A stretch of 64,000 nucleotides of DNA, taken from positions 280 to 64,279 of the forward strand of contig CALWIH010000002.1 of assembly GCA_944380675.1 (NCBI GenBank). The letters run 5' to 3'. The position numbers and the translations under genes are program-made. The DNA is from an uncultured Clostridia bacterium. GTDB taxonomy: Bacteria > Bacillota > Clostridia > Oscillospirales > Acutalibacteraceae. Each line of letters starts with the position of its first letter. Within the stretch, counting starts at the first letter, position 1. Positions 3,255-16,348 of this stretch are shown here, piece by piece. Below the pieces are notes generated by a model. It was not told the DNA's origin and searched no databases. It worked only from the letters and a program-made list of their open reading frames with translations.

Positions 3255-4271
3255 ATGGAGGCCACGCGCGTTTTGGTTTTGGCTGCCGCCTCTCTCCTGG
3301 CAGCCGGTCTCGGGGCTCTTCTCCCGGAGCTGCCCTTTCCTGTTCGGCTTCTGCTGATTGCCGCGGCGGCCGGACTGACGGCGCTGCAGCTGTCCTTCTG
3401 TTTGCAGGCCGGAGCGGAGAGGGAGAAAAAGCTTCGCGAGACGCAGCTCCGCCTTGAGGAGGCGGAGCGCCACGGGGAGGAGGCTGCGCAGCGCGTGCGC
3501 GAGGAGGCGCAGAAACGGCAGGCGCAGACAAAGGAAAAGCTCGCCGCGTTTTACAGCAAGGCCTCGCACAGCCTTCGCGTCCCGATTTCCGTCGTGCAGG
3601 GATATGCCGATCTGCTCGGCAGCGGGCTGATTCAGGATGAGAGCGTCAGAAGGGAATACCTCAATAAAATCCGCGAGCGCACGGAGTATATGAGCACCGT
3701 TCTCGGCCAGCTTCTCGCGGAGGCCCGCGTGCAGACCGATCTCAGCATTGCCTTCTGGGACAGGTTTGACCTGGTGGAGCTGCTGCGTCAGATTACCGGC
3801 GATATGCAGGAGGCGGCCCTGAAGCTCGGCACAACCATCCGCCTCGTGTCCGAGGTGCGCCGCCTTCCCTTTGAGGGGGACAGGACCCGGCTGACGCGAG
3901 CCTTCTACAATATCCTGGAGAACAGCCTCAAATATATGAACGCCGCGGGCCGCATCACGGTGACGCTCTCCGTCGTGGAGGGAAAGCAGGTCTTCCTTGT
4001 CTTCAAGGACGACGGCGCCGGGATGGATCGCGAGGAGGCAGAGCACGTCTTCGAGCTGAACTACCAGGGCTCGAACGGAGGGCAGGGCAACGGAATGGGG
4101 CTCTATCTGGTGTATGTCACGGCGCTCGCGCATCACGGAAGCGTCAGCGCGCGCAGCGCGCCGGGAGCCGGTATGACCATCCGGATGCTTCTTCCGCTGG
4201 AGCAGAGGGAGAACGCGGCCCGCAGCCGTGCGCGGGAGGCCGCGCAGCCGGATACGGAAAACGCATCGTGA
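3255..4271 (+). CDS. Sensor histidine kinase (two close N-terminal TM helices, no extracellular domain)
   Basis: H-box SHSLRVPISVVQGY, N-box NILENSLKY, G1 DDGAGM, G2 GNGMGL; 338 aa. Confidence 0.93.
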   Translation: MEATRVLVLAAASLLAAGLGALLPELPFPVRLLLIAAAAGLTALQLSFCLQAGAEREKKLRETQLRLEEAERHGEEAAQRVREEAQKRQAQTKEKLAAFYSKASHSLRVPISVVQGYADLLGSGLIQDESVRREYLNKIRERTEYMSTVLGQLLAEARVQTDLSIAFWDRFDLVELLRQITGDMQEAALKLGTTIRLVSEVRRLPFEGDRTRLTRAFYNILENSLKYMNAAGRITVTLSVVEGKQVFLVFKDDGAGMDREEAEHVFELNYQGSNGGQGNGMGLYLVYVTALAHHGSVSARSAPGAGMTIRMLLPLEQRENAARSRAREAAQPDTENAS

Positions 4272-4323
4272 CGATTGAGGAAATACTTTGTCCAATATGT
4301 CGAAATTCTGCGGAAACACCGTC

Positions 4324-4343
4324 TTTTTAGAAAATCTTTAGAA
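4324..4343 (+). promoter_or_regulatory. Direct-repeat regulator box TTTAGAA-N4-TTTAGAA (copy 1)
   Basis: TTTTTAGAAAATCTTTAGAA, 11-bp period, lying where the -35 of the main operon promoter should be; 19/20 identical to the reverse complement of 42438-42457. Confidence 0.6.
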
Positions 4344-4360
4344 AAGTATGAACGAATTTA

Positions 4361-4369
4361 TGGTATGAT
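4361..4369 (+). promoter_or_regulatory. Extended -10 element of the main eCIS operon
   Basis: TGGTATGAT (TGn-TATGAT) with no recognisable -35 hexamer at 17 bp. Confidence 0.45.
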
Positions 4370-4468
4370 AGGGAGGGTAAAATAGTCCGTTTGAAATGAC
4401 GCGCCGCCGGGCGCTTTTCAGGTTCAGGGAGAGACAGGAACACAAAAATCTGCTGTGAGGTGTATTTC

Positions 4469-6256
4469 ATGGAAAATCGTCAGCTTCTGCCGTTTGAACG
4501 AAACCGCTATTACGTCGGCAAGCTTTTGACCTCTGCTGATTTTCAGGCCGAGCAGAGCTACTTTAACAATAAACGCCGCTTTCTCAATCAGATGATGTTT
4601 GGAGCGGGGATCGTCTGCGGGCTGAGCGTATACAGCCTCGATGATCTCTCCGTCATGGTGGAATCCGGCGCAGCCATCGACGGCCTCGGCCGCGAGATTG
4701 TGGTGGAAAATTCCGTCGTGCGCAAGCTTTCCGCCATCGAGGGCTTCGAATCCCTCACCGGCGAGCACGCCGCCCTCTGCCTGCGCTATCGCGAGGAGGC
4801 CGTGCACCCCGTCTGCACCGTCAACCGGATGGAGCGCGACGAGGAGTATGAGCTCAACCGCCTGCGCGAGGGCTGGGAGCTTTTCCTTACCGACGCGTCG
4901 GAGCTCGGCGGGGAGGAGGCCCCGGAGTCGGAGTTCCTCCTGCAGTCGACGCTCTATGAGGACGCCGATTATTCCGTCACCGTGACGGCGCCCGCCGTCG
5001 CGAGCTGCGGCAGCGCTCTGAAGGTGCTGGTTCGCATTCAGAAGACTTCTGAGGCGGACGGCAGATTTTCCATCGACGGCGTCCTGCAGGCGCCCGCCTT
5101 CCTCACGTCCGACGGCGGCCATGAGGCACGGATTCACGCGGTGGATCTCGCTTTGGAGAAGGACGAGTATTTTGACTGCGTCTGCTGGCTTTCGGCGCAG
5201 CAGCCCGCCGACGAGGCGATTCTGCTGGCAAAGACGGACACGATGCGCATCACGGTCAACGGAGCGGAAAAGCCTGTGCCCGATTCCTTCCTGCTCAAGC
5301 TTTCGGTCTCCTCCGACTCTGTTGAGGACATCCTCTCCCGCGAGGTGGGCCGCGCCAGCCTCGAGACGCGCAGCTTTTCCGCGCCGCCCGAGTACATCCG
5401 GCTCGCCGACATCACCCTGCAGCTGACGAAGAACGCCTACATCATCGACCGCGTCGAGGAGCGCGGCGTGAAGAAATATCTCCATACGACCTCCGGCGAG
5501 GAGACGCGCCGCGCCTACGCGGAATGGTTCTCCGCCGCCGGGACGGACGCGCCCGCCGCAGCCGCGCAGCTGCGCGAGCAGAGAACCGGCGGCCTGACCT
5601 TCCAGGAGCCGCTTTACGCGACCGGCACCTGCGAAATCCCGCTCGGCGACAGAGCGCGCCGCGGCGAGACCTTCTTCTCCGGCGAGATCATGCACGGCCT
5701 CGGCCCCGGCAACGTCTTTGTCCAGGTCGGCTTCGAGTATCTTGCCGAGGACTCCCGCCTCTTCTCGACGGCCCGCAACACGATTTACGGCGACGTCTCC
5801 CTTTTTGAGGCGGAAAAGCTTCCCGTCCCGACGGCGCAGACGGCCGTGAAGGTCATGAACGACCGCGGCAGCTTCGTCGTCGCGGCGCGGCTCGAGAAGG
5901 AGACGTCCTATGTGATGCTCCTCATGCGCTGGGTCGCCGTCAAGATGCCGTCTGAGGACGACCGCGCTCTCCTGCAGAAGATCGCCGACAAGAGCATCAG
6001 CGCCGTGCAGCCCACGATTCTTCTCGGGACGCACGAGAGCTGCTACTTCAACGTCCGCTTCCGCAACATGGAGCCCTGCGGCCTGACGTACGAGCTGACC
6101 GACAGGGATTCCGGCGAAATCACGCCCGACGGCGTATATACGGCGCCGGCGCGCGAGGGCGTGTACGAGATCCGCATCAGCTGTGCCGACGCGCCGCTGA
6201 TCTGCACCTATGCCTATGCGATCGTGAAGAAAAAAGAGCGCGGGGAAGGCGAATGA
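4469..6256 (+). CDS. CIS-associated protein with N-terminal fibre/baseplate-anchor-like domain and C-terminal Ig-like domain
   Basis: ATG 4469 follows GAGGTG (ORF track opens at GTG 4460). I recognise the N-terminus PFERNRYYVGKLLTSADFQAEQSY...RRFLN..FGAGIVCGL from phage-tail/CIS loci. C-terminus GEITPDGVYTAPAREGVYEIRI looks Ig-like. Confidence 0.55.
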   Translation: MENRQLLPFERNRYYVGKLLTSADFQAEQSYFNNKRRFLNQMMFGAGIVCGLSVYSLDDLSVMVESGAAIDGLGREIVVENSVVRKLSAIEGFESLTGEHAALCLRYREEAVHPVCTVNRMERDEEYELNRLREGWELFLTDASELGGEEAPESEFLLQSTLYEDADYSVTVTAPAVASCGSALKVLVRIQKTSEADGRFSIDGVLQAPAFLTSDGGHEARIHAVDLALEKDEYFDCVCWLSAQQPADEAILLAKTDTMRITVNGAEKPVPDSFLLKLSVSSDSVEDILSREVGRASLETRSFSAPPEYIRLADITLQLTKNAYIIDRVEERGVKKYLHTTSGEETRRAYAEWFSAAGTDAPAAAAQLREQRTGGLTFQEPLYATGTCEIPLGDRARRGETFFSGEIMHGLGPGNVFVQVGFEYLAEDSRLFSTARNTIYGDVSLFEAEKLPVPTAQTAVKVMNDRGSFVVAARLEKETSYVMLLMRWVAVKMPSEDDRALLQKIADKSISAVQPTILLGTHESCYFNVRFRNMEPCGLTYELTDRDSGEITPDGVYTAPAREGVYEIRISCADAPLICTYAYAIVKKKERGEGE

Positions 6257-6296
6257 CGCCCGGTATCCTCGCAGCGTGAAAGGGGGGTGAGGCAGG

Positions 6297-7151
6297 TTGG
6301 TTTTTCATGCGGATGATATGCTCCTTTCACCCGTCCGGGAGGTGCTCCGCGGGCCGGTGAACGATATCCTGGTCTGCCGGGATCTGCGCTCCTCTGCGCG
6401 CAGCAGCTACCTCCTGATCGCGATTCGCGACAGAGAGACGGCGAGGCGCGTCCTCGCTGTGCTGCAGAGCTCCCAGCGGGAGACGGGGGGAAAGAGCCCG
6501 TATCTGAAAATGTTCACGGAAAACGAGTATCTCTGCTTCCTGTTCGAATACCGCCCCGAGCGCCGGCTTGACCGCTTTTCCGACGGCCAGCTCACGACGC
6601 CGCAGTCGCGCGAGCGCGTGTGCGTCAACCTTGTGATGGAGTGCCTGTCGAGCGCGCTGCCGTTCCCGCTTCTTTATCTTGCGCTTGAGAAGGAGAACGT
6701 CCACCTGCTGCAGGACGACGGCGTGTATCTCACCTGCTGCTTCGATCTCAGCCGCCTCGACGAGTCGATCGGCGAGGCCGAGTGCGCGGATCGCTGCGTG
6801 CAGATCCTTCTCGACCTTCTGCGCCGCCAGTCGCGGCGTCAGCTCAAGAGCTTTGAGCTTCTGCGGAAAAAATCCGAGCGCGGCGCGTACGGGAGCCTTC
6901 CGGAATTATACCGCGATATCCGCTTCTCCTCGCTCCCCGAGCAGAAGACGCCGTTCCGCAAACGGTTGGCGGCCTTCTGGGAGCGAAACAAGGATCTCTT
7001 TTTCCGCATTCTGCTGCGCGTCTGCGTGATTCTTGCCGCCGCGGCGGTGATTATTCTGATTTGCCAGCTTCTGTTCGGCGGATTCCCGCTGCTTCGCCTG
7101 TTCCAGAACACCTTTGAGGTGATTGGGACGGAAAATCTGACGATGGCCTGA
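6297..7151 (+). CDS. Membrane-anchored protein with probable pseudokinase fold
   Basis: TTG start. LEKENVHLLQDDGVYL resembles the kinase catalytic-loop region without HRD or DFG. Single C-terminal TM (ILLRVCVILAAAAVIILICQLLF). Confidence 0.5.
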   Translation: MVFHADDMLLSPVREVLRGPVNDILVCRDLRSSARSSYLLIAIRDRETARRVLAVLQSSQRETGGKSPYLKMFTENEYLCFLFEYRPERRLDRFSDGQLTTPQSRERVCVNLVMECLSSALPFPLLYLALEKENVHLLQDDGVYLTCCFDLSRLDESIGEAECADRCVQILLDLLRRQSRRQLKSFELLRKKSERGAYGSLPELYRDIRFSSLPEQKTPFRKRLAAFWERNKDLFFRILLRVCVILAAAAVIILICQLLFGGFPLLRLFQNTFEVIGTENLTMA

Positions 7152-7167
7152 AAGGAGGAAGCCCGGA

Positions 7168-9696
7168 ATGAAAAAAGCGATTGCAGCCGTGGTGCTGCTC
7201 GGCGTTCTGCTTGCCGCCGTGCTCGCCGCGACGCCCTCGGGTCTTCCCAATCTGTCCGGCGCGCAGCATACGCTGGCCCTCACGGAGGATCAGACGGCTT
7301 ATGTCGCGGAAAACCGCGAAGCCGTGTCGTGGATCTATGGGCTTGACAGCGCGGGCGCCGTGCAATCCGCTTATATGGACGCGGAGGGCCATCGGATTCT
7401 TCTTCTCACGGCGTTTGAGAACAATGTCTATTTCGTGCGCGCGTCCCGTTCCTCTGAGAATTGGGAGCTTTGTCTGCTGAAGGACGCTGAGGCGGAGACT
7501 GTCTTCTCCTCCTCGAGGGACTATCCCGATCCGCCGTCGTCCGTCAGCGTCTCTGATTCCGGAATTGATTTGACCTTCCTCGACGGGGAGGACGTCAGCG
7601 TCTGCCGCGTCTCCGGCGAGGGCGAGCCCGTCGAGCTTCTTACGGCGGACGCGCAGGGTGCTCCGGTGACGGCCGCCTATGCCGGCGGAAAGCTCTATAC
7701 CCTCATGACGGACGGGACGATCCGCACCTACAGCGCCGGCGGCACGGCGGACGCGGAGGAGCTCGGCGGCTTCTCGCTGCTCTCCGTCTCGCAGGGTTCC
7801 GTCTGGGCTTACCGGCAGGAGACCGGCTCCGCGTGCGCGGGCGCATCGGCTGTCCGCACCGGTTCCGGCGACGAGCTCAGCAGCGGAGATGTTCTCTGCG
7901 GCGCGCATACCGAAAACGGCGGCGCCGTTCTCTCCGCGGAAAACGGGGAGACGGTCCTCGTCCGGTCGGGCGCTCAGGTTGTCCGCCAGAGTCCGTCGGC
8001 GTCCTTCCGTTTCCGCCTTGTTTTCAAGCTGCCGCTTCTGCTCGCTGTGATGGCGGCGTATCTCGTGTGCGCCGTCGTGCTGCTGCTGACCGTTTTCCTC
8101 TGCGGAAGGGCGAAGCGCCTCGCCGCCCGCGTGACGGTCTGCTGCGCCTGCCTCTTCCTGTTTGCCGCCGGTATCGCCGGCATGATCGCCGTTTCCCGCT
8201 CCGCTGCGGCCGAGGAGGCTTCTCTGCTCGCGCAGGCTCAGACCGCCGGCCAGCTGCGCGCCGATTCGATGGAGAACCTCGCGCTGATCGACACGGAGGA
8301 CGCACTGCTTCCGCTGCTTGACGCCGGGCAGAGCGGCGAGGTGCGGTATGACGCCGTTCTTCTGACGCCGGAAGGCGACAGCGTCCTTCTCTCCTGCCTG
8401 TCTCCGGCCGGAACGCCCGCCCGGACGGCCCTCGGCGCCGAAGCCGGCGCGTTCGCCGAAGTTTGCGCAGAGACGGGGACGAACGCGCAGGCCGTGTTCC
8501 GCAGCGGGACGCTTTGTGCCGTCGACGTGCGCTCCGTGTACTGGTACGGCAGCGAGAGCGCCCGGCTTGTCACCCGTGTCTCCCGCGCGGCGGGAGGCGT
8601 CGACTGGCTCGGCTGCTTCCTGGTTCCCCTGCTCGCCGCCCTCGCGGCCATCTTCGCCGTCGCGATGCTTTCCTTCACGATGCTGCGTCCCCTTCGCCAG
8701 ATGACGCGCCGGATGCGCGCCGTCTCCGTGGGAGATTTCGTGATGCCCGCGATGCGTACGGGCTCCGACGAGGTCGGCGAGATGTGGCAGTCTCTGCGGG
8801 AGATGGCCGTCGCCCTGCGGATCAAGGATTATGAAACGAATGCCACGGTGCGCTCTTTTTACCGGTTTGTGCCGCGCGGCCTTGAAAAGCTGCTTGACCG
8901 GGCCTCCGTCATGGAGACGAGCCTCGGCGATATGGCGAACGTCTCCGGTACGGTGGCGGTGCTCTCCATCCAGAACCGGGAGGATATGCGCCAGCGCCTT
9001 GACGACGACGGCTTTATGAGCTTCTTGAACGACAGCTACTCCGTCGTCGACCGCCAGCTCACGGAGCACGAGGGCTTCCTGCTCTCAAGCGGCTTCGACC
9101 TCGAGGGACTTGACCTGCTGTTCCGCGACTCGTCCGATCAGGGGCTGTCCTTCAGCCTCGGCCTGCTCGGCGAGGTCAACGGGATGGCAAGGGAGCAGGC
9201 GCCGGACTTCTTCCTGTTCCTGCACAGCGTGACCTTCCTCTACGGACTCGTCGGCACGGAGCAGCGCAACTTCTCGCTCCTGTCGTCGTCCGAGCTCTCC
9301 TTCCTCAAGACGCTCTCCCCGAAGTTCCGCCGCACCGGCGTGCGCATCGCGGCGACGGAGGCGTGCCTGCGTTCCATGACGCAGCCGTGCGCGTCCCGGT
9401 ACATCGGCTTTGTCTCGTCGGAGGACGGCAAATACACCTATAAGCTTCACCAGATCCTCGAGGGGTGCTCCGATATGGAAAAATCGCTGTGCCTCTCATA
9501 CGACGATAAATTCCAGAAGGCGATCGGCCTGTTCTGCCAGAACGATTTCTATCTCGCGAGAAACCTGTTCTCCGCCGTCCTCAAGCTCAACCCGGCGGAC
9601 GGCATTGCCCGCTGGTATCTCTTTGCCTGCGAGCACTATTTCAATAACAGCGAGCCGGGCGGAGAGGTTTACAGCCTGTTCGGCATTGAAGATTGA
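7168..9696 (+). CDS. Membrane sensor with HAMP, degenerate class III nucleotide cyclase domain and C-terminal TPR-like region
   Basis: Signal/TM, extracellular region and further TMs; HAMP LRPLRQMTRRMRAVSVGDF...DEVGEM; cyclase-type SFYRFVP..LL...LGD...TVAVLSI...FLN; TPR-like tail FQKAIGLF...ARNLFSAVLKLNPADGIARWY. Confidence 0.75.
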   Translation: MKKAIAAVVLLGVLLAAVLAATPSGLPNLSGAQHTLALTEDQTAYVAENREAVSWIYGLDSAGAVQSAYMDAEGHRILLLTAFENNVYFVRASRSSENWELCLLKDAEAETVFSSSRDYPDPPSSVSVSDSGIDLTFLDGEDVSVCRVSGEGEPVELLTADAQGAPVTAAYAGGKLYTLMTDGTIRTYSAGGTADAEELGGFSLLSVSQGSVWAYRQETGSACAGASAVRTGSGDELSSGDVLCGAHTENGGAVLSAENGETVLVRSGAQVVRQSPSASFRFRLVFKLPLLLAVMAAYLVCAVVLLLTVFLCGRAKRLAARVTVCCACLFLFAAGIAGMIAVSRSAAAEEASLLAQAQTAGQLRADSMENLALIDTEDALLPLLDAGQSGEVRYDAVLLTPEGDSVLLSCLSPAGTPARTALGAEAGAFAEVCAETGTNAQAVFRSGTLCAVDVRSVYWYGSESARLVTRVSRAAGGVDWLGCFLVPLLAALAAIFAVAMLSFTMLRPLRQMTRRMRAVSVGDFVMPAMRTGSDEVGEMWQSLREMAVALRIKDYETNATVRSFYRFVPRGLEKLLDRASVMETSLGDMANVSGTVAVLSIQNREDMRQRLDDDGFMSFLNDSYSVVDRQLTEHEGFLLSSGFDLEGLDLLFRDSSDQGLSFSLGLLGEVNGMAREQAPDFFLFLHSVTFLYGLVGTEQRNFSLLSSSELSFLKTLSPKFRRTGVRIAATEACLRSMTQPCASRYIGFVSSEDGKYTYKLHQILEGCSDMEKSLCLSYDDKFQKAIGLFCQNDFYLARNLFSAVLKLNPADGIARWYLFACEHYFNNSEPGGEVYSLFGIED

Positions 9697-9724
9697 CCGG
9701 TATTCGGGGAAAGGCGGGTGACCG

Positions 9725-10984
9725 ATGAACAGAATATTGCAGACGCTGTACGCCTCGATTCAGGCGAAGGTCATGGGTCTGTGGACGAAAATCCGCCTTT
9801 GGACCAGCCGGGCCTATTGGGAATCGAAGGGGATCACCACCCTTCGGCAGTTCTTCTCGAAGCTCCTGAGCATCAAGCCGCGGGACAAGACGGACTATTA
9901 TTCCGTATCCCGATGGCTTGTCAGCAAGCGTCTTGCCTTTGCGCTTGTGGTGCTGGTGGGACTGGCGAGCGTTTTGTACATCCTTGTTTTTTCCCCGGTC
10001 AATTCCCTGTTCCAGAGCGACGGGACGACGCTTCCCACCTATTGGTACAATTCCATCCCGCTCAAATTTGCCGGCGGGAAGGTGCAGATTCTTGCGGCGG
10101 ACGGCCACCTCGCCTATGTCGGCGACGTCGCCGACGGGGAGGCCGCGGGCGCAGGAAGCCTGTACCGCGCGGACGGCAGCCTCGTGTATGAGGGCGCCTT
10201 CGCCGAAAGCCGCTACAACGGGACGGGCAGCCTGTATTTTCCCGACGGCGTGCTCCAATATCAGGGCGAGTTCGCGGACAACCTCTATCAGGGGCAGGGA
10301 AAGCTTTACCGCCAGACCGGCGTGCTGGAGTATGAGGGCGAGTTTCTCAAGGGGATGAAGTCCGGCGCGGGCGTGCTGTACAACAGCGGCGGGACGCCGA
10401 TCTTCACCGGGAATTTCCTCGCGGACCGGCTTCTCTACGCCGAGTTTGTCGGCAAGACGACGGCGGAGGCCTCCCAGATGTACACGGGAAGCATCAGCGT
10501 GTACAGTTCGTCGAACGAGTACTGCGCGTCCATGGACGAGATCCATGCCGTCTACACGACGGCAGACGCCTCCGACACGCTTTCCGAGGAGTGGACGATC
10601 AGCCAGGTGCTCGTGGAGGATTCCGTCTTCCCCACTGCGGAGGGGGAGATTTCCACCATCAACGAGCTGACCGCCTATTTCGGAGAGCCCTCCTACTTCG
10701 GCTACACCTGGCCGACGCTCACGGAGGCCGTCGCGATCCGCAGGCTGAGCGAGGCGGGGAAGGGCCGCTTCGCCGACATCGAGATGGAGACGACGTCGTC
10801 GCTCCGGGATGTCGTCACCGTGAATTCCTACGATTTGGACTATGAGCTTTACATCTATACCTACGAGATGGACGGCCTGACGTACACCTTCTACTGCGAT
10901 TCAAGTACGTCGAGCTTTTCCATGTACGCGATTGAACAGAGCGATTCGGCTTCGGCGGAAGCGCAGCAGGAAGGAGGAGAGTGA
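9725..10984 (+). CDS. MORN-repeat membrane protein
   Basis: One TM (LAFALVVLVGLASVLYILVF) followed by repeats YEGAFAESRYNGTGSLY, YQGEFADNLYQGQGKLY, YEGEFLKGMKSGAGVLY. Confidence 0.85.
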   Translation: MNRILQTLYASIQAKVMGLWTKIRLWTSRAYWESKGITTLRQFFSKLLSIKPRDKTDYYSVSRWLVSKRLAFALVVLVGLASVLYILVFSPVNSLFQSDGTTLPTYWYNSIPLKFAGGKVQILAADGHLAYVGDVADGEAAGAGSLYRADGSLVYEGAFAESRYNGTGSLYFPDGVLQYQGEFADNLYQGQGKLYRQTGVLEYEGEFLKGMKSGAGVLYNSGGTPIFTGNFLADRLLYAEFVGKTTAEASQMYTGSISVYSSSNEYCASMDEIHAVYTTADASDTLSEEWTISQVLVEDSVFPTAEGEISTINELTAYFGEPSYFGYTWPTLTEAVAIRRLSEAGKGRFADIEMETTSSLRDVVTVNSYDLDYELYIYTYEMDGLTYTFYCDSSTSSFSMYAIEQSDSASAEAQQEGGE

Positions 10985-10986
10985 GA

Positions 10987-13029
10987 ATGAAGAGGAGACG
11001 GAGCCTGCGGCAGGCAGTCAGCGTGCTGCTCTGCTTCTGCCTGATTGCGCCCCTGTTTGTCCTGTCGCCCGTCAGCGCGGCGGCTCCGAAAACGCTCCAG
11101 CTTCAGCAGGCCAGACGAATGGTGCTCACGAACAACTCCGAAATCACAAAGACGTACAACGAGATTCTTCTGAAGGAAATCCAGTATACGGAGGCCGTAA
11201 AGGAAATCAAGGCGAAGGTCAAGAACCTCACAAGCTTCCGCTGGACGCCGCTGCTCAGCTTCAAGTTCCCCGAGCAGCTCGACATGAGCGAGGAATATGA
11301 CCTCAACGTCAAGCCTCTCAACCTGCAGACGGAGATTGACGTGCTCCGCCACAAGATGGCGATGATGGAGTACGACGAGCTCGCCCGCATCAACAACGCG
11401 TTTCTTGACGCGTATGTCTGTCAGGAGAAGGTCTCCTTCAACGAGGAGCGGCTTTCCGCCGCGGAGACCGACCTCGCGAGGAACAAGGCGCGGCTGACAA
11501 CCGGCGAGGCAACGCAGGCCGACGTCGACACGATGCAGTCCACCGTCGATTCGCTCACAAGCGACCTCGCGCAGCTCAAGCGAAACCTGCAGACGGCGCT
11601 CGAGGAGGTCAGCGACCTCATCCACCTCGACGTGACCTCCGGCTACACGCTCGCCAGCCCCGTGGTGGACGCGCAGATCCCGCGCGGCGACCTCGAGGAT
11701 ATCATTGAGCACGCGATGGAAAACAGCCAGACGATCTATGAGGCGAAGATGGCCGTCTCCACCGCGCAGGTCAACCTCGATTCCTATGAGTCGCTCATGC
11801 GCAGCCAGTACGGCTCCAAGCTGAATGTCATCAACAACTTCCTGACGCAGGTCAGAAACGGCGAGGACGTCGATTACGCGGCTTTCCAGCTCAAATACAA
11901 CGAGATGCTTGCATCCTTCGATCGGCCGTGGAACGGCTCCGTCCGGATTTTGTTCTTCAAATTCACCAAGGAATGGTTCAAGGGCGAGATCGACGGTACG
12001 CGCTATATCGAAAACGACCTCTATGCTCTGATGACGGCGTGCAAGGAGTATACGACCGCCGTTACAGAGCTGGAAGCCGCGGAAAAGACGCTGCGCAGCG
12101 AGATTACCTCCAGCTACGAGGCGATCGTCACGGCGCGCAACGCCTACCTCGGCCTTGTGGAGTCCACGGAGCAGGCGAGAGAGGACCTCGAGCGCCTCGT
12201 CGCCCTCAACCAGCTCGGCAAGGCGGAGTACAGCGAGGTCAAGACAAAGCAGGACGAGTACCAGTCCAATCAGCTCGACATGATCGACGCGCTCGCCACC
12301 TACGACGAGCTCCTCTTCAATCTTGACGCCACGACGTGCGGCGCGATTACCCCCTATCTCGAGGGGACGAGCGTGAGCACGAGCGCCGGCTCCGGCGGCG
12401 ACAGCATCGTCACCGACGACGCGACCGTGCCGCACTATTACATCTATACCGACATTTCCGACATGGTTTTCGTCTTCGGACTTGAGATTCCCGAGGAGTT
12501 CGAGCCCGCCGTCACCGATTATGAAATCTGGTACAGCGGCACGCAGATCGGCGAGCGCACGCCCGTCGGCGAGCAGCTCCGCCATCTCGCGCTCGACTAC
12601 AAGGGCACCTGCACCCTGACGGTCCGCCTCTACGAGGGCGAGGACTTCGTCACGGAGTGCGAGATCGATACGACGGTCACGCGCGACATTCTTCCGATCG
12701 AGGCCGCGCAGGCGGAAACCGTGCCCGAGGACACGCAGTGCGGCGCCTACTCGGTCGACACCGTCTCCCACGGCTCGCTGAGCACCAGCACGCTGACGCT
12801 CTCGCTCGACGCCTCCACCGGCGCGAAGTACTTTACCCTCGTCAGCGGCAGCGGTTCGAGCGTCTATACGGAGGAGCCCGTCGCGGCGGACGATACCTTC
12901 TCGTACCTGACGCTGCTCATCAGCAGCCTGTCCGACGTGACCATCCGCCTCTACGACGCGGACAAGAACGAGATCGGCACAGCCTATTTCAACGAAGATA
13001 CCCAGACCATCTGGATGACGGCGCAGTGA
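10987..13029 (+). CDS. Secreted TolC/outer-membrane-efflux-protein-like helical protein with C-terminal beta-rich extension
   Basis: ATG 10987 after AGGAGG; signal peptide ending VSA/AA. Two TolC-like repeat starts (TLQLQQARRMVLTNNSEI; DLEDIIEHAMENSQTIYEAKMAV), each followed by long amphipathic helices. Confidence 0.6.
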   Translation: MKRRRSLRQAVSVLLCFCLIAPLFVLSPVSAAAPKTLQLQQARRMVLTNNSEITKTYNEILLKEIQYTEAVKEIKAKVKNLTSFRWTPLLSFKFPEQLDMSEEYDLNVKPLNLQTEIDVLRHKMAMMEYDELARINNAFLDAYVCQEKVSFNEERLSAAETDLARNKARLTTGEATQADVDTMQSTVDSLTSDLAQLKRNLQTALEEVSDLIHLDVTSGYTLASPVVDAQIPRGDLEDIIEHAMENSQTIYEAKMAVSTAQVNLDSYESLMRSQYGSKLNVINNFLTQVRNGEDVDYAAFQLKYNEMLASFDRPWNGSVRILFFKFTKEWFKGEIDGTRYIENDLYALMTACKEYTTAVTELEAAEKTLRSEITSSYEAIVTARNAYLGLVESTEQAREDLERLVALNQLGKAEYSEVKTKQDEYQSNQLDMIDALATYDELLFNLDATTCGAITPYLEGTSVSTSAGSGGDSIVTDDATVPHYYIYTDISDMVFVFGLEIPEEFEPAVTDYEIWYSGTQIGERTPVGEQLRHLALDYKGTCTLTVRLYEGEDFVTECEIDTTVTRDILPIEAAQAETVPEDTQCGAYSVDTVSHGSLSTSTLTLSLDASTGAKYFTLVSGSGSSVYTEEPVAADDTFSYLTLLISSLSDVTIRLYDADKNEIGTAYFNEDTQTIWMTAQ

Positions 13030-13051: not shown

Positions 13052-15733
13052 GTGAAGCGAAGGAGAATTCTGGCGACAGCGCTCGCACTTGCCGCCGTCG
13101 CGGTGATCGGCGTGTTTACCGTCCTGGTACAGGCAGTGTGGAACGAGGACGAGGCCGTTCATATCACGCCCTCCGAAATTGAGAATTCGACCCTCGCCAT
13201 CGGCACCCATCTCATTCACCTCTCCGCATTGACGGACGAGCTGTACGAGATTGCCTCCACCTCGGCGGAGGAGTCGGGGCAGGGCGAGGTTTACTACAAA
13301 TCCGAGCTCGCCGACGGAACATGGTTCAACATCACGACCGCTTCCTCGCTCGAGGATATCACGACGGGCGGCACGCCTGTGCTCGAGTCGGAGATTGCCG
13401 AGCTGTTCTTTACCCATCACACGAAGTCGGACGGCGTCACCTACGACCTGCGCACCGGCGAGGCCGTGAATCCGTACGACATCGTCGACCCGTACGACAT
13501 CGAAACGCTCGACGAGCTTCTTCCGCTCAAGAATCAGTATGAGCTGATCCGCGAGATGCAGGGAGACAGCGCCGCCGGCAAGGAGAAGATTGCGAAAATC
13601 GAGGCGATTCTCCGCACCGAGGTCAGAAACGAGACGACCGATCGGTGCGACGCCAATCTGGAAGCGCTCCGGCGCTATTACAACGTCCTCGCGGAGAACG
13701 ACGCTCCCGCCGATCAGCTGAGCGCCGTCCAGGAGGTCATGACCGCTGTCGACGCGACGCGCCGCGCCGAGGTCTTCTCGACGCTCGAGACGATCCTCAA
13801 CGAGTTCGCGCAGGAGCTGCCCCGCATCGAGGACACCGCCGGCAGCGAGGAGGAGGAGGGCTCCGAGGGCCGCAGCCCGGACACGGAGCTGCAGTCCGCG
13901 GCGAACGACAGCCTCTCGAACGTCCAGTCCTCGCTCATCGAATACCAGGGCAAGATGCTCGACGAGGGCACGACCGTCGCCTCCTCTCTCAAATTCACCT
14001 ACTCCAACGACCTCATCGACCATGCCAACGCCGACAATCACGCCGCGTGCGACGGCGACGTGCAGAACCTGCTGCACCTGTCGAATATTTCCTCCGGCGT
14101 TGTCGCCGATAAGCAGGGCGAGCTCGATCTGCTCGACGCTTCGATTCTCCCCGCGGCGACCCAGGCGTATCAGGACGGCCTCTCAGCGGGCGTCAGTGCG
14201 GACTACGTCGCGGCGGCAGCCTCCAATTCGTCCGCGGCCCTGCTCCAGCAGCTCATCAAAACGAATCAGAGCAACGTCAACACCTCCCGCAACGAGCTTG
14301 AGACGTATATCTCCGCGAAGGTGCTCCGACTCTCGAACGAGGACGGCAAAGCGTTTCTCAACGAGCGGCTCGAGCAGACGCAGGAGTATTACAGTCTTGT
14401 CCCGAACGACGATTTCTCCGCCAGCATGGGGGAGACGATCGACAGTCACATCGAGTTCCTGACCGATCAAATCCGCCAGCTGGAGCTCGACGCCGGCGGC
14501 AATGAGCTCGACCGGCTGATAGCGGAGAAGGCGTCGCTCCAGACGGACTATATGTCCGCGCTCGACGAGAACGATCTCATGGGCGCGAAGGCGATAGAGG
14601 AGCAGATTGCCGATCTTGACGCGAAAATCGAAGCGCTTCAGAATGAGCAGACGGACGCGCTCAACGCCGCGCAGACAGCTCTGTCGGAGCTTCAGGAGCA
14701 GCTGGCGAACGCAGAAGCGGGCAGCGCCGAGGCCGCCGCTCTCGAGAGCGAAATTGCCGCCCTCAAGGCGGAAATCTCCTCCCTTGAGTCCGGGATGAGC
14801 GAAAATTCGCTCGGCGAGCTCGTCGCCCGCCTCAAGGCGGAATGCCTTGACATCATCGGCGAGACCTCCTCGGACGATCCGCTGCGCGATACGCTGCAAA
14901 ACGATATCGACACGCTCGCTTCCCTCCTCGATCAGAACGTGAAGCTCGTCTTCCCGGCGCTGCAGGACATCTATTCGGCCCTGCTCGAGGAGCGCGATCT
15001 CAACGGCGACAGCTCCTACGGAGACGAGATCGCCGCGGTGGAGGAGGCCATCCTCGGCAGCAAGACCGCCTACGACGCCTCGCTGCAGGGAGAGCTCTCC
15101 GCAGATCGAATCCAGGAGATCGCGGACGGCTTCCTCGAGGGAGAGGCTGATTCTCTGCTTAATTCCGGCGCGGGACTGACCCTGGGGTCGGGAAGCGGTT
15201 CCGGAGCGGGATCCGGAACGCCGGACGTCACGTCCCTCTCCGAGTTCGAGAAGAACGCCGTGTACCTGCTGGGCCTGCAGAAATTCTACGACGCGACCCA
15301 CAGCGCCGCGGCTCTCCGGCTCATCGGCTCCAACGCGCAGAAGCAGATGAATCTCGGCAATTCTCTCGTTTTCCGTCAGGTGGAGGATCCGTCCATGGAA
15401 TACGTTCCCGCCTCGAGCGCCGCGCAGGCGGCCGGCCTGCGGTATGTCTGGAATCAGAACAAGAGCCAGGGCACGCTCGCGAAGGGCAGCCTCTACTATA
15501 CCTTCGCCGCCTACTCGGATCTCGTGCAGCGCGGAAGGACGGAGGACAGCTATGAGCAGATGACAAAGGCGGCCAAGCTGACGGGTGAGACGCTCTATCT
15601 GCCGGAGGACTACACCGGCGAAGCGTTCTCCGTTACGGCCTGCTATCTGACCCAGACGGCGTATGCCGTGATAGAGCGCGAGGATCTCACGCTCCTGGCC
15701 GACGAGCTTTGTTCGCTTCTTCTGGCAGCCTGA
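13052..15733 (+). CDS. Large N-terminally anchored coiled-coil protein with C-terminal copper-amine-oxidase-N (stalk)-like domain
   Basis: N-terminal TM/signal; heptad-rich middle (IEEQIADLDAKIEALQNEQ...LESEIAALKAEISSLE); GS linker; C-terminal YVPASSAAQAAGLRYVWNQ...TLYLP. Confidence 0.6.
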   Translation: MKRRRILATALALAAVAVIGVFTVLVQAVWNEDEAVHITPSEIENSTLAIGTHLIHLSALTDELYEIASTSAEESGQGEVYYKSELADGTWFNITTASSLEDITTGGTPVLESEIAELFFTHHTKSDGVTYDLRTGEAVNPYDIVDPYDIETLDELLPLKNQYELIREMQGDSAAGKEKIAKIEAILRTEVRNETTDRCDANLEALRRYYNVLAENDAPADQLSAVQEVMTAVDATRRAEVFSTLETILNEFAQELPRIEDTAGSEEEEGSEGRSPDTELQSAANDSLSNVQSSLIEYQGKMLDEGTTVASSLKFTYSNDLIDHANADNHAACDGDVQNLLHLSNISSGVVADKQGELDLLDASILPAATQAYQDGLSAGVSADYVAAAASNSSAALLQQLIKTNQSNVNTSRNELETYISAKVLRLSNEDGKAFLNERLEQTQEYYSLVPNDDFSASMGETIDSHIEFLTDQIRQLELDAGGNELDRLIAEKASLQTDYMSALDENDLMGAKAIEEQIADLDAKIEALQNEQTDALNAAQTALSELQEQLANAEAGSAEAAALESEIAALKAEISSLESGMSENSLGELVARLKAECLDIIGETSSDDPLRDTLQNDIDTLASLLDQNVKLVFPALQDIYSALLEERDLNGDSSYGDEIAAVEEAILGSKTAYDASLQGELSADRIQEIADGFLEGEADSLLNSGAGLTLGSGSGSGAGSGTPDVTSLSEFEKNAVYLLGLQKFYDATHSAAALRLIGSNAQKQMNLGNSLVFRQVEDPSMEYVPASSAAQAAGLRYVWNQNKSQGTLAKGSLYYTFAAYSDLVQRGRTEDSYEQMTKAAKLTGETLYLPEDYTGEAFSVTACYLTQTAYAVIEREDLTLLADELCSLLLAA

Positions 15734-15751: not shown

Positions 15752-16345
15752 TTGGCAGATTACTCCATTATTTCCGACGTCTCGGCGTACCTCGTGAAGC
15801 TGCTCCGCCAGCGAATGTGCCCGGAGCCGATTCCCTCGCCGAACAATATCGAGGTTTCCTCCCCCGCGGAGCAGGACGTCGACTATATCCTGGGCCTCTA
15901 CCTCTACGACATCCGCGAGGAGGGGGAAATATCCGTCCCGCCGCTTGTCGGCGCGGGCAGGACGCGCCTGTCGCGTCCGCCGAAGCCGTACAGCCTCTAC
16001 TATATGCTGTTTATCAACGGCTCGTCTCAGATGGGCCTGAAGGCGCACGATATTCAGAAAATCATCGGACGCGCCGCCCAGGTCATCAACGACGGCAATA
16101 TCGTCTATCCGAACCAGCTGCAGACCTGGCTGGAATCCCCGGAGGCGCCCATCAGCATCACGCCCTCGAAGATTTCCCTCGAGGATAAGGTGCGCGTGTG
16201 GTCGGCCATCAATAAGCCCTACCAGGTCAGCCTGTTTTACAAGGCCGCGCCCGTGCTGCTCTCGAGCGAGATCATCGTTGACGCGCCGCGCGTCACGCAG
16301 GCGGACTTCACGCTCCACCTGACGGGCGAAAGCAGGGAGGGATAG
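15752..16345 (+). CDS. DUF4255 / Pvc16-Afp16-like tail terminator (cap) protein
   Basis: TTG start after GGGAGG. Motifs ISDVSAYLVKLL, LGLYLYDIRE, PYSLYYML, SLEDKVRVWSAINKPYQVSLFY. Confidence 0.85.
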   Translation: MADYSIISDVSAYLVKLLRQRMCPEPIPSPNNIEVSSPAEQDVDYILGLYLYDIREEGEISVPPLVGAGRTRLSRPPKPYSLYYMLFINGSSQMGLKAHDIQKIIGRAAQVINDGNIVYPNQLQTWLESPEAPISITPSKISLEDKVRVWSAINKPYQVSLFYKAAPVLLSSEIIVDAPRVTQADFTLHLTGESREG

Positions 16346-16348
16346 CCG

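Follow-up and report, generated by a model that had tools for sequence, protein, structure and literature searches.

TolC-like proteins of monoderm Firmicutes were published in 2022 from twelve examples, one of them from C. difficile, and many of them are encoded in operons with pump parts (PMC8809574). The same study found the barrel domain to be reduced, suggested that the proteins reside in the S-layer and did not settle how they are assembled without BAM (PMC8809574). Accessory membrane proteins have also been described for contractile injection systems (CIS). In haloarchaeal CIS resembling the type VI secretion system (T6SS), which are closest to the systems of Bacillota, the membrane-protein gene Hbor_38620 marks the cell-anchored clade (PMC11566945), and in the CIS of Streptomyces coelicolor the bitopic membrane protein CisA is needed for firing and function (PMC12237407). 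In the current study, we analyzed a TolC-like protein encoded within a CIS cluster on a stretch of 64,000 nucleotides (i.e., the window; assembly GCA_944380675.1, contig CALWIH010000002.1, positions 280 to 64,279 of the forward strand) from an uncultured Clostridia bacterium of the Acutalibacteraceae. The gene stands among CIS genes in a putative five-gene envelope module. We propose, at roughly even chances, that the TolC-like protein is an extracytoplasmic strut or portal of this module, whose role would be to dock, gate or trigger the CIS at the envelope of the Gram-positive cell.

The monoderm TolC-like proteins published so far share with the protein of the window the OEP fold, a single-membrane host without BAM and a reduced barrel, and they are its nearest sequence neighborhood outside its own family. 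They measure ~380-450 aa, with an adaptor and a transporter in the operon of the pump-linked type (PMC8809574), whereas the protein studied here has 680 aa, an insertion of ~68 aa, two beta-sandwiches and a CIS context in place of a pump operon. The TolC and outer membrane factor (OMF) proteins of diderms (i.e., E. coli TolC 1EK9, OprM, CusC and VceC) are its best structural matches, and they have in common with it the signal peptide, two tandem repeats, long antiparallel helices, tip glycines, the equatorial segment and the typical N-terminal motif. Unlike these proteins, it occurs in a host without outer membrane or BAM and shows short hairpins, altered tips, added FN3/Ig-like domains and no pump operon. 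Two traits of the TolC/OMF type are lacking. There is no beta-barrel placed in an outer membrane by BAM or TAM, as the genome has no Omp85 or LpxC and the segments between the helices comprise only 17 and 21 residues, modeled with low confidence; and there is no partnership with a membrane fusion protein (MFP) and an inner-membrane transporter, neither being encoded at the locus or in 21 related loci, and the VGL/VGT tip motif is lost.

The open reading frame (ORF) of the TolC-like protein is a real gene. In the window, which has a G+C content of ~62%, its ATG lies 2 nt behind the end of the MORN gene with a GGAGG box 9 nt ahead. A public protein collection contains one identical copy and at least 439 relatives (E <= 0.001), and where NCBI names these, they are called "TolC family protein" from Oscillospiraceae, Oscillibacter or Agathobaculum. 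An exhaustive search over 50%-identity representatives gave 266 clusters of homologues, many of them full length (~660-720 aa) with identities down to ~20%, and these numbers are far beyond chance. The N-terminus is built from MKRRRSLRQ (with five basic residues), a 20-aa hydrophobic core and SAAAP, and the same type of N-terminus was found in 32 of 32 aligned relatives. Inspection of the sequence revealed neither a lipobox nor an LPXTG/sortase motif.

The TolC fold was recovered by family models, profile comparison and structure prediction. Pfam OEP (PF02321) matched the protein in two stretches with 31.3 bits against a cut-off of 22, and in a whole-genome OEP scan both repeats passed the cut-off (27.9 and 24.5 bits). 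The NCBIfam model TIGR01844 (type I secretion TolC) was not reached, with 37.4 bits against a curated cut-off of 225.15. While a search of the PDB with the single sequence gave no TolC match, a profile of 26 relatives matched TolC-family chains only (E ~0.01-0.1), and the alignment was collinear for both repeats (109-212 to TolC 82-186, and 353-444 to TolC 307-396). The AlphaFold2 (AF2) single-chain model, with a predicted local distance difference test (pLDDT) score of 78, contains helices at 100-172, 177-212, 248-315, 337-409 and 415-449, of which the long ones (100-172 and 337-409) count 73 aa each, and its body is ~11 nm long. It shows the TolC protomer fold, i.e., long helical hairpins, an equatorial segment and hairpins between the helices. 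In a Foldseek search against the PDB, ranks 1-44 were exclusively TolC, OprM, OprN, OprJ, CusC, SilC, VceC, MtrE or CmeC, with E-values of 9e-10 to 5e-5 and target-normalized template modeling scores of 0.47-0.64. An earlier sequence-only reading of this DNA had noted a signal peptide, two TolC-type repeats and a beta-rich C-terminus, and all of these were confirmed, with the structure search returning TolC-type channels throughout the ranks given above.

The C-terminal 200 residues, modeled alone, formed two beta-sandwiches with a pLDDT of 84. In the PDB and BFVD, these domains resemble only generic tandem FN3/Ig/C2 pairs, and a profile made from them had no match among PDB chains; they give no indication of function.

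Other features are specific to the family. Compared with three plain Clostridial TolC-like proteins, which are without it, repeat 2 contains an insertion of ~68 residues that extends the helix leading to the "barrel" end and adds a hairpin (PWNGSVRILFFKFTKEWFKGEIDGTRY). The hairpin regions between the helices, residues 83-99 and 316-336 of the AF2 model, are 17 and 21 residues long at low confidence. In an alignment of 32 sequences with 18-76% identity, no other 20-residue stretches are as conserved as the two hairpin blocks, which reach 2.80 bits per column for residues 81-100 and 2.93 for residues 321-340 against a family mean of 1.93. Hairpin 1 alternates between hydrophobic or aromatic residues (F84, W86, L90, F92 and F94) and polar or basic ones (R85, T87, S91 and K93), and F, W and K are frequent in hairpin 2. 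In our reading, this residue pattern would suit contact with a membrane interface or with a hydrophobic socket of another protein. The glycines at the helical tips are kept in 31 of 32 and 32 of 32 aligned relatives, and the residue that follows them is mostly K, Q or E, as compared with VGL and VGT in the aligned TolC tips. In the docking of AcrA or MacA to TolC, the TolC tips touch the hairpins of the adaptor. The changed tip motif and the missing MFP together suggest that the pump-docking surface of the TolC-like protein has been given up.

The gene is tied to the CIS by position and by descent. The order of MORN gene, TolC-like gene and gene for a ~900-aa protein was kept in all 21 related loci fetched, counting one (L017) whose contig stops before the position of the ~900-aa gene, and over these loci the identity of the TolC-like protein falls from 96% to 20%. 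All of these loci but L017, whose contig ends just after the TolC-like gene, show CIS genes (20 of 21), and the HAMP-type protein is present wherever the fetched contig extends far enough. The closest loci come from metagenome-assembled genomes (MAGs) named Oscillospiraceae, Anaeromassilibacillus and Caccousia (Bacillota, Clostridia, Acutalibacteraceae). A 22nd genome, from the same genus, has an identical spacing between the TolC-like gene and the sheath gene. Some of the distant loci have the block after Tail_P2_I and g04 and ahead of the cap, DUF4280 and ATPase genes; the operon is permuted and the envelope block is held together. The identity of the TolC-like protein follows that of the sheath (Spearman 0.85, n=12 loci), a correlation which, the loci being kin, reflects co-inheritance and is not an independent statistic, and over the same 12 loci the TolC-like protein diverges at ~1.9 times the rate of the sheath. 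The linkage to the CIS is strong, and the functional tie supposed by the sequence-only reading is supported in that the gene is co-operonic with the CIS and co-inherited with it in every related locus examined.

The distribution in the host family indicates that the module is separable from the CIS itself. A sheath homologue was found in 18 of 201 sampled genomes and the TolC-like protein in 3 (absent in 198); in the other 15 sheath-bearing genomes, whose sheath is ~52% identical, a profile search at E <= 0.01 did not find it. In the one sister cluster that was opened (G139), the genes from the sheath to Tail_P2_I are succeeded by a g04 homologue and two small ORFs, and no homologues of g05-g09 were detected in the 52 kb fetched. 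Because this module-less cluster has g04, the gene, which occupies the tail-fiber position, belongs to the core CIS machine, leaving g05-g09 as the envelope module. By gene content, these five genes are possessed by one CIS sub-lineage and missing from its sister. In the literature relating CIS or extracellular CIS (eCIS) to TolC or outer membrane efflux proteins, MORN proteins, monoderms or Bacillota, we found no description of such a five-gene module.

The host assembly, a MAG of 2.70 Mb and 92.9% completeness, contains no Omp85/BamA, LpxC or SLH domains by searches that matched diderm controls. Within the limits of what a MAG reveals, the host is a monoderm, and the missing outer membrane, for which the sequence-only reading had suggested a genome check for lipopolysaccharide or BamA, is upheld. 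The S-layer location proposed in 2022 gains no support from SLH domains, none of which was found in this genome. The host probably forms endospores, because SpoIVA is present. The TolC-like ORF was the sole OEP protein in the whole-genome scan, and pump partner genes were found neither near it, as had been noted from the sequence, nor in any of the 21 related loci. The sole MFP of the genome is encoded on a different contig (G000:C3:58128-60283), directly upstream of a MacB_PCD/FtsX permease; the ~35 residues between its lipoyl halves are read as a very short hairpin.

The sequence-only reading had treated a TolC-like protein in an organism without outer membrane as the surprise of the locus. 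Since such proteins have been published (PMC8809574) and 54 of 399 sampled Clostridia genomes match the family profile, their occurrence without an outer membrane is not new in itself. Plain TolC-like proteins of ~370-450 aa, matching the TolC part only, account for 51 of the 399 genomes (~13%). A clear case of the published pump-linked type is found in a genome that carries SpoIVA (G407), where locus L026 (G407:C19:152001-166000) encodes, all on the minus strand, an MFP (HlyD_D23, 6011-7165), a resistance-nodulation-division (RND) transporter (ACR_tran, 1043 aa, 7263-10394) and an OEP protein (384 aa, 10391-11587). Another locus (L025, G464:C55) has two OEP genes at most 3 kb apart, at 3312-4592 (plus strand, 426 aa) and 6561-7721 (minus strand, 386 aa), and among the plain proteins, the one of 386 aa is nearest to the CIS-linked family (E 5e-25). 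What sets the locus of the window apart from the published cases is its CIS context. We regard the family as a branch of the monoderm TolC-like proteins that is dedicated to the CIS and distinguished by the insertion and the C-terminal domains, and it was probably recruited from pump-linked Clostridial TolC-like proteins by gaining the hairpin insertion and the C-terminal domains and changing the tip motif.

The features of the protein and its surroundings are compiled in Table 1. Neighboring genes of the string are separated by 2-40 nt, and the number of terminator-like sites is that expected by chance (17 against 13.1 +/- 3.8 expected from shuffled sequence). The tube gene is followed by genes for further tube-like proteins, spike, gp25, baseplate J and Tail_P2_I, and an AAA ATPase is encoded upstream on the other strand. 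The Pfam matches at the locus are Phage_sheath_1, Phage_T4_gp19, CIS_tube, Phage_base_V, GPW_gp25, Baseplate_J, Tail_P2_I, Pvc16_N, DUF4280 and AAA. With sheath, tube, spike, gp25, baseplate J, cap and AAA ATPase in one locus, the cluster is a CIS of the Afp/PVC-type eCIS in the wide sense.

Table 1. Coordinates in the window of the TolC-like gene, the parts of its product and the adjacent genes.
Feature	Position	Strand	Extent	Description
TolC-like gene	10987..13029	+	680 aa	Whole ORF including stop
Sec-type signal peptide	10987..11085	+	aa 1-33	Lipobox absent; from sequence and alignment
TolC repeat 1 and equatorial segment	11086..11727	+	aa 34-247	Long helix 100-172, return helix 177-212, tip G173
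Hairpin 1, "barrel" end	11233..11283	+	aa 83-99	SFRWTPLLSFKFPEQLD; amphipathic, aromatic, highly conserved
TolC repeat 2	11728..12336	+	aa 248-450	Long helix 337-409, return helix 415-449, tip G411
Insertion of ~68 aa	11806..12009	+	roughly aa 274-341	Boundaries approximate (MAFFT); holds hairpin 2, PWNGSVRILFFKFTKEWFKGEIDGTRY
Flexible Gly/Ser/Thr-rich linker	12337..12432	+	aa 451-482	pLDDT <50 over 462-478 (AF2 model)
Two tandem FN3/Ig/C2-like beta-sandwiches	12433..13026	+	aa 483-570 and 582-680	Within the C-terminal ~230 aa
g04	4460..6256	+	598 aa	Core CIS; cytoplasmic; tail-fiber gene position
g05	6297..7151	+	284 aa	Cytoplasmic domain and one C-terminal transmembrane (TM) helix
g06	7168..9696	+	842 aa	Four TM helices, two predicted outside loops, HAMP, cytoplasmic C-terminal part
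g07	9725..10984	+	419 aa	Bitopic MORN-repeat protein; TM 70-88, basic N-terminus inside
g09	13052..15733	+	893 aa	N-terminal anchor/signal, long helical/coiled-coil exported part, weak Cu_amine_oxidN1-like C-terminus
Downstream CIS genes, same gene string	15752..19875	+		Pvc16_N cap, 267-aa protein, DUF4280 (PAAR-like), sheath, gp19-type tube

The match of the g09 C-terminus to Cu_amine_oxidN1 is weak (E 0.007), and the same family was matched, without being marked as weak, by the homologues in the distant loci L015 and L029. According to a TM scan with the positive-inside rule, the exported parts measure ~330 aa in the MORN protein, ~650 aa in the TolC-like protein and ~870 aa in g09. In the predicted topology, g05 and the N-terminus of g07 face the cytoplasm, and the HAMP region of g06 leads to a cytoplasmic part. 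Domain scans found no peptidoglycan-hydrolase domain in any module protein, and no lysis cassette, holin or endolysin was recognized in the window or near the cluster.

The predicted topology of the module proteins leads us to the strut or portal of a docking, gating or triggering complex. The five module genes, set between the fiber-position gene and the cap gene, encode a tail-anchored protein, a HAMP receptor with four TM helices, the MORN protein and a coiled-coil protein of ~900 aa, both of them bitopic, and the TolC-like protein, and the complex would reach from the cytoplasm, where the CIS would be assembled, into the wall. In this scheme, the TolC-like protein would be Sec-exported and non-lipidated, with the TolC-fold body joined by a flexible linker to the two FN3/Ig-like beta-sandwiches. 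Most likely, it would trimerize as TolC does and serve as a strut or portal in the wall zone. Since it has no lipid, sortase or SLH anchor, its retention at the surface would have to depend on its membrane-anchored neighbors, on the conserved hairpin cap, which is amphipathic and basic and would rest on or within the cytoplasmic membrane, or on the two together. The ~11-nm body would extend well into a Gram-positive wall, probably not across it.

Several points weigh against this proposal. The evidence for a strut or portal is genomic or predicted throughout, and from gene linkage one cannot tell structural docking apart from a role in sensing, regulation or the release of particles. The hairpins are the part of the AF2 model with the lowest confidence (pLDDT ~46-53), and the root-mean-square deviations of the Foldseek matches are high (10-15 Å). 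The genome is a 93%-complete MAG and does contain one MFP-MacB pair. E. coli TolC is encoded apart from its pumps, so that absence of neighboring pump genes does not alone exclude work in a pump. The gene in fiber position, g04, is retained, and the CIS may still be a released eCIS.

The alternative that survives best, which we nevertheless consider rather unlikely, is a sensor or trigger in the envelope. Damage to the wall or membrane, or cell contact, would be reported by the TolC-like, MORN and coiled-coil proteins to the HAMP receptor, which would fire the CIS, either outward or into the membrane of the producer as in the cell death of Streptomyces, and the TolC-like protein would be a mechanical probe and not a portal. 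The HAMP receptor with its two outside loops belongs to the same module, and CisA is required for firing in Streptomyces (PMC12237407), both of which are consistent with such a role. However, the sequence of the TolC-like protein bears no sign of signaling, and the sensor overlaps the strut or portal reading to the extent that sequence alone cannot tell them apart.

The sequence-only reading had favored a conduit or collar for the needle, in which the helical barrel would be a peptidoglycan channel for the CIS tube and spike. This is very unlikely by dimensions, in spite of the strict CIS linkage of the gene, a hollow-barrel-type body of ~11-13 nm and a window devoid of a lysis cassette, all of which would fit it. 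The lumen of a TolC trimer is ~3.5 nm wide, and the inner tube of CIS of the Hcp/gp19 type measures ~8-9 nm; a canonical trimer therefore cannot admit the tube. Only a much larger ring could take it, and we know of no TolC-family member with more than three protomers. Besides, a length of ~12 nm is below the thickness of most Gram-positive walls. We attach a similarly small probability to a release factor, by which the module would open the wall or membrane for the exit of eCIS particles, like a spanin or lysis device in a monoderm. That no holin or endolysin was recognized near the cluster would fit this, and the retained fiber-position gene suggests that particles might act outside the cell, but the module proteins lack a hydrolase domain for peptidoglycan and the sister CIS clusters manage without the module.

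An ordinary exit duct is highly improbable as well. Here the protein would serve in trans, as E. coli TolC does, either the MFP-MacB pump of contig C3 or some other exporter, possibly for the product of the nonribosomal peptide synthetase (NRPS). Its membership of the OEP family, the one MFP-MacB pair of the genome and the pump-linked TolC-like proteins of other Clostridia speak for a duct. Yet the gene was never seen outside the CIS module in the 21 fetched loci, the protein is absent from 198 of the 201 family genomes, the tip motif is altered, and the hairpin of the MFP is, in our reading, very short. In three of the four other module-bearing genomes the NRPS is missing or unlinked. Only G104, a genome of the same genus, has it beside the locus; no homologue was found in G172, and G350 and G506 have only an adenylation-type protein of ~510 aa on other contigs. 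The secretion of the NRPS product proposed in the sequence-only reading is rejected because the linkage is not conserved, and the needle conduit is unsupported as well. With the TolC fold, the monoderm host, the lack of pump genes at the locus and the tie to the CIS borne out, that interpretation as a whole is partly supported. A role specific to sporulation, in which the protein would act in the forespore intermembrane space with a second membrane available to a TolC-type barrel, is the least credible of all: the host has SpoIVA, a SpoIIE-type phosphatase operon is adjacent and the CIS of Streptomyces is tied to development, but the module-less sister genomes sporulate by the same marker and a 100%-complete genome with the full module has no SpoIVA. 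This last genome (G350, locus L027), of a Clostridia bacterium, encodes the full module and CIS cap genes, and SpoIVA was not found in it; as it has the module without SpoIVA, the module is not confined to spore formers.

The strut or portal reading can be set beside the accessory proteins of other CIS. Like the module, the putative anchor Hbor_38620 is an accessory membrane component of one CIS sub-lineage that is missing in its sister, in a cell without outer membrane (PMC11566945); it differs in being a single protein with six TM helices and no TolC fold, whereas the module comprises five genes, and three of their products have large exported parts. CisA is likewise an accessory membrane protein in a monoderm CIS cluster (PMC12237407), but it is a single protein of unrelated fold, with a substrate-binding-like C-terminal domain, and serves a CIS that is free in the cytoplasm. 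With the TssJ-TssL-TssM complex of diderm T6SS, an envelope-spanning complex that docks the baseplate, there may be an analogy of function; no homology was seen.

Streptomyces CIS remain in the cytoplasm. To our knowledge, nobody has shown a CIS acting from, or leaving, a thick-walled Gram-positive cell, and no mode of action has been shown for CIS of Firmicutes. The module offers concrete candidates for CIS action at the Gram-positive wall, being conserved, discrete, open to gain and loss, and equipped with three proteins with large exported parts. In a more far-reaching picture, which we put forward tentatively and at low probability, it would belong to a cell-anchored type-VI-like CIS of monoderm Clostridia, with a TolC-fold trimer in a trans-wall complex, the hairpin cap in the cytoplasmic membrane and the barrel extending into the peptidoglycan, marking the firing site or keeping it open. 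With the strut or portal proposed here, the TolC fold would have a second use outside efflux where an outer membrane is lacking, and this bears on the question raised in 2022 of where such TolC-like proteins are located and how they are assembled without BAM (PMC8809574).

Relatives longer than the protein of the window also exist in the CIS-linked family (1000-1575 aa). One of 1297 aa, at L017:6262-10155, has a further C-terminal extension of 581 aa with no Pfam match. The module-less sister CIS lineage, which retains g04 behind Tail_P2_I and comprises G139:C14 (loci L018 and L023) and 14 further family genomes, is found mostly in small genomes of 0.9-1.6 Mb, and three measure 2.2-2.4 Mb. In four relatives with small genomes, the sheath gene is interrupted by a single in-frame stop (G130:C14:29509-31248, G006:C72:4673-6394, G191:C5:1188-2909 and G106:C36:1379-3193), which is TAG in three of them and TAA in one, the latter matching in two pieces; decay, assembly error or recoding could account for these stops.

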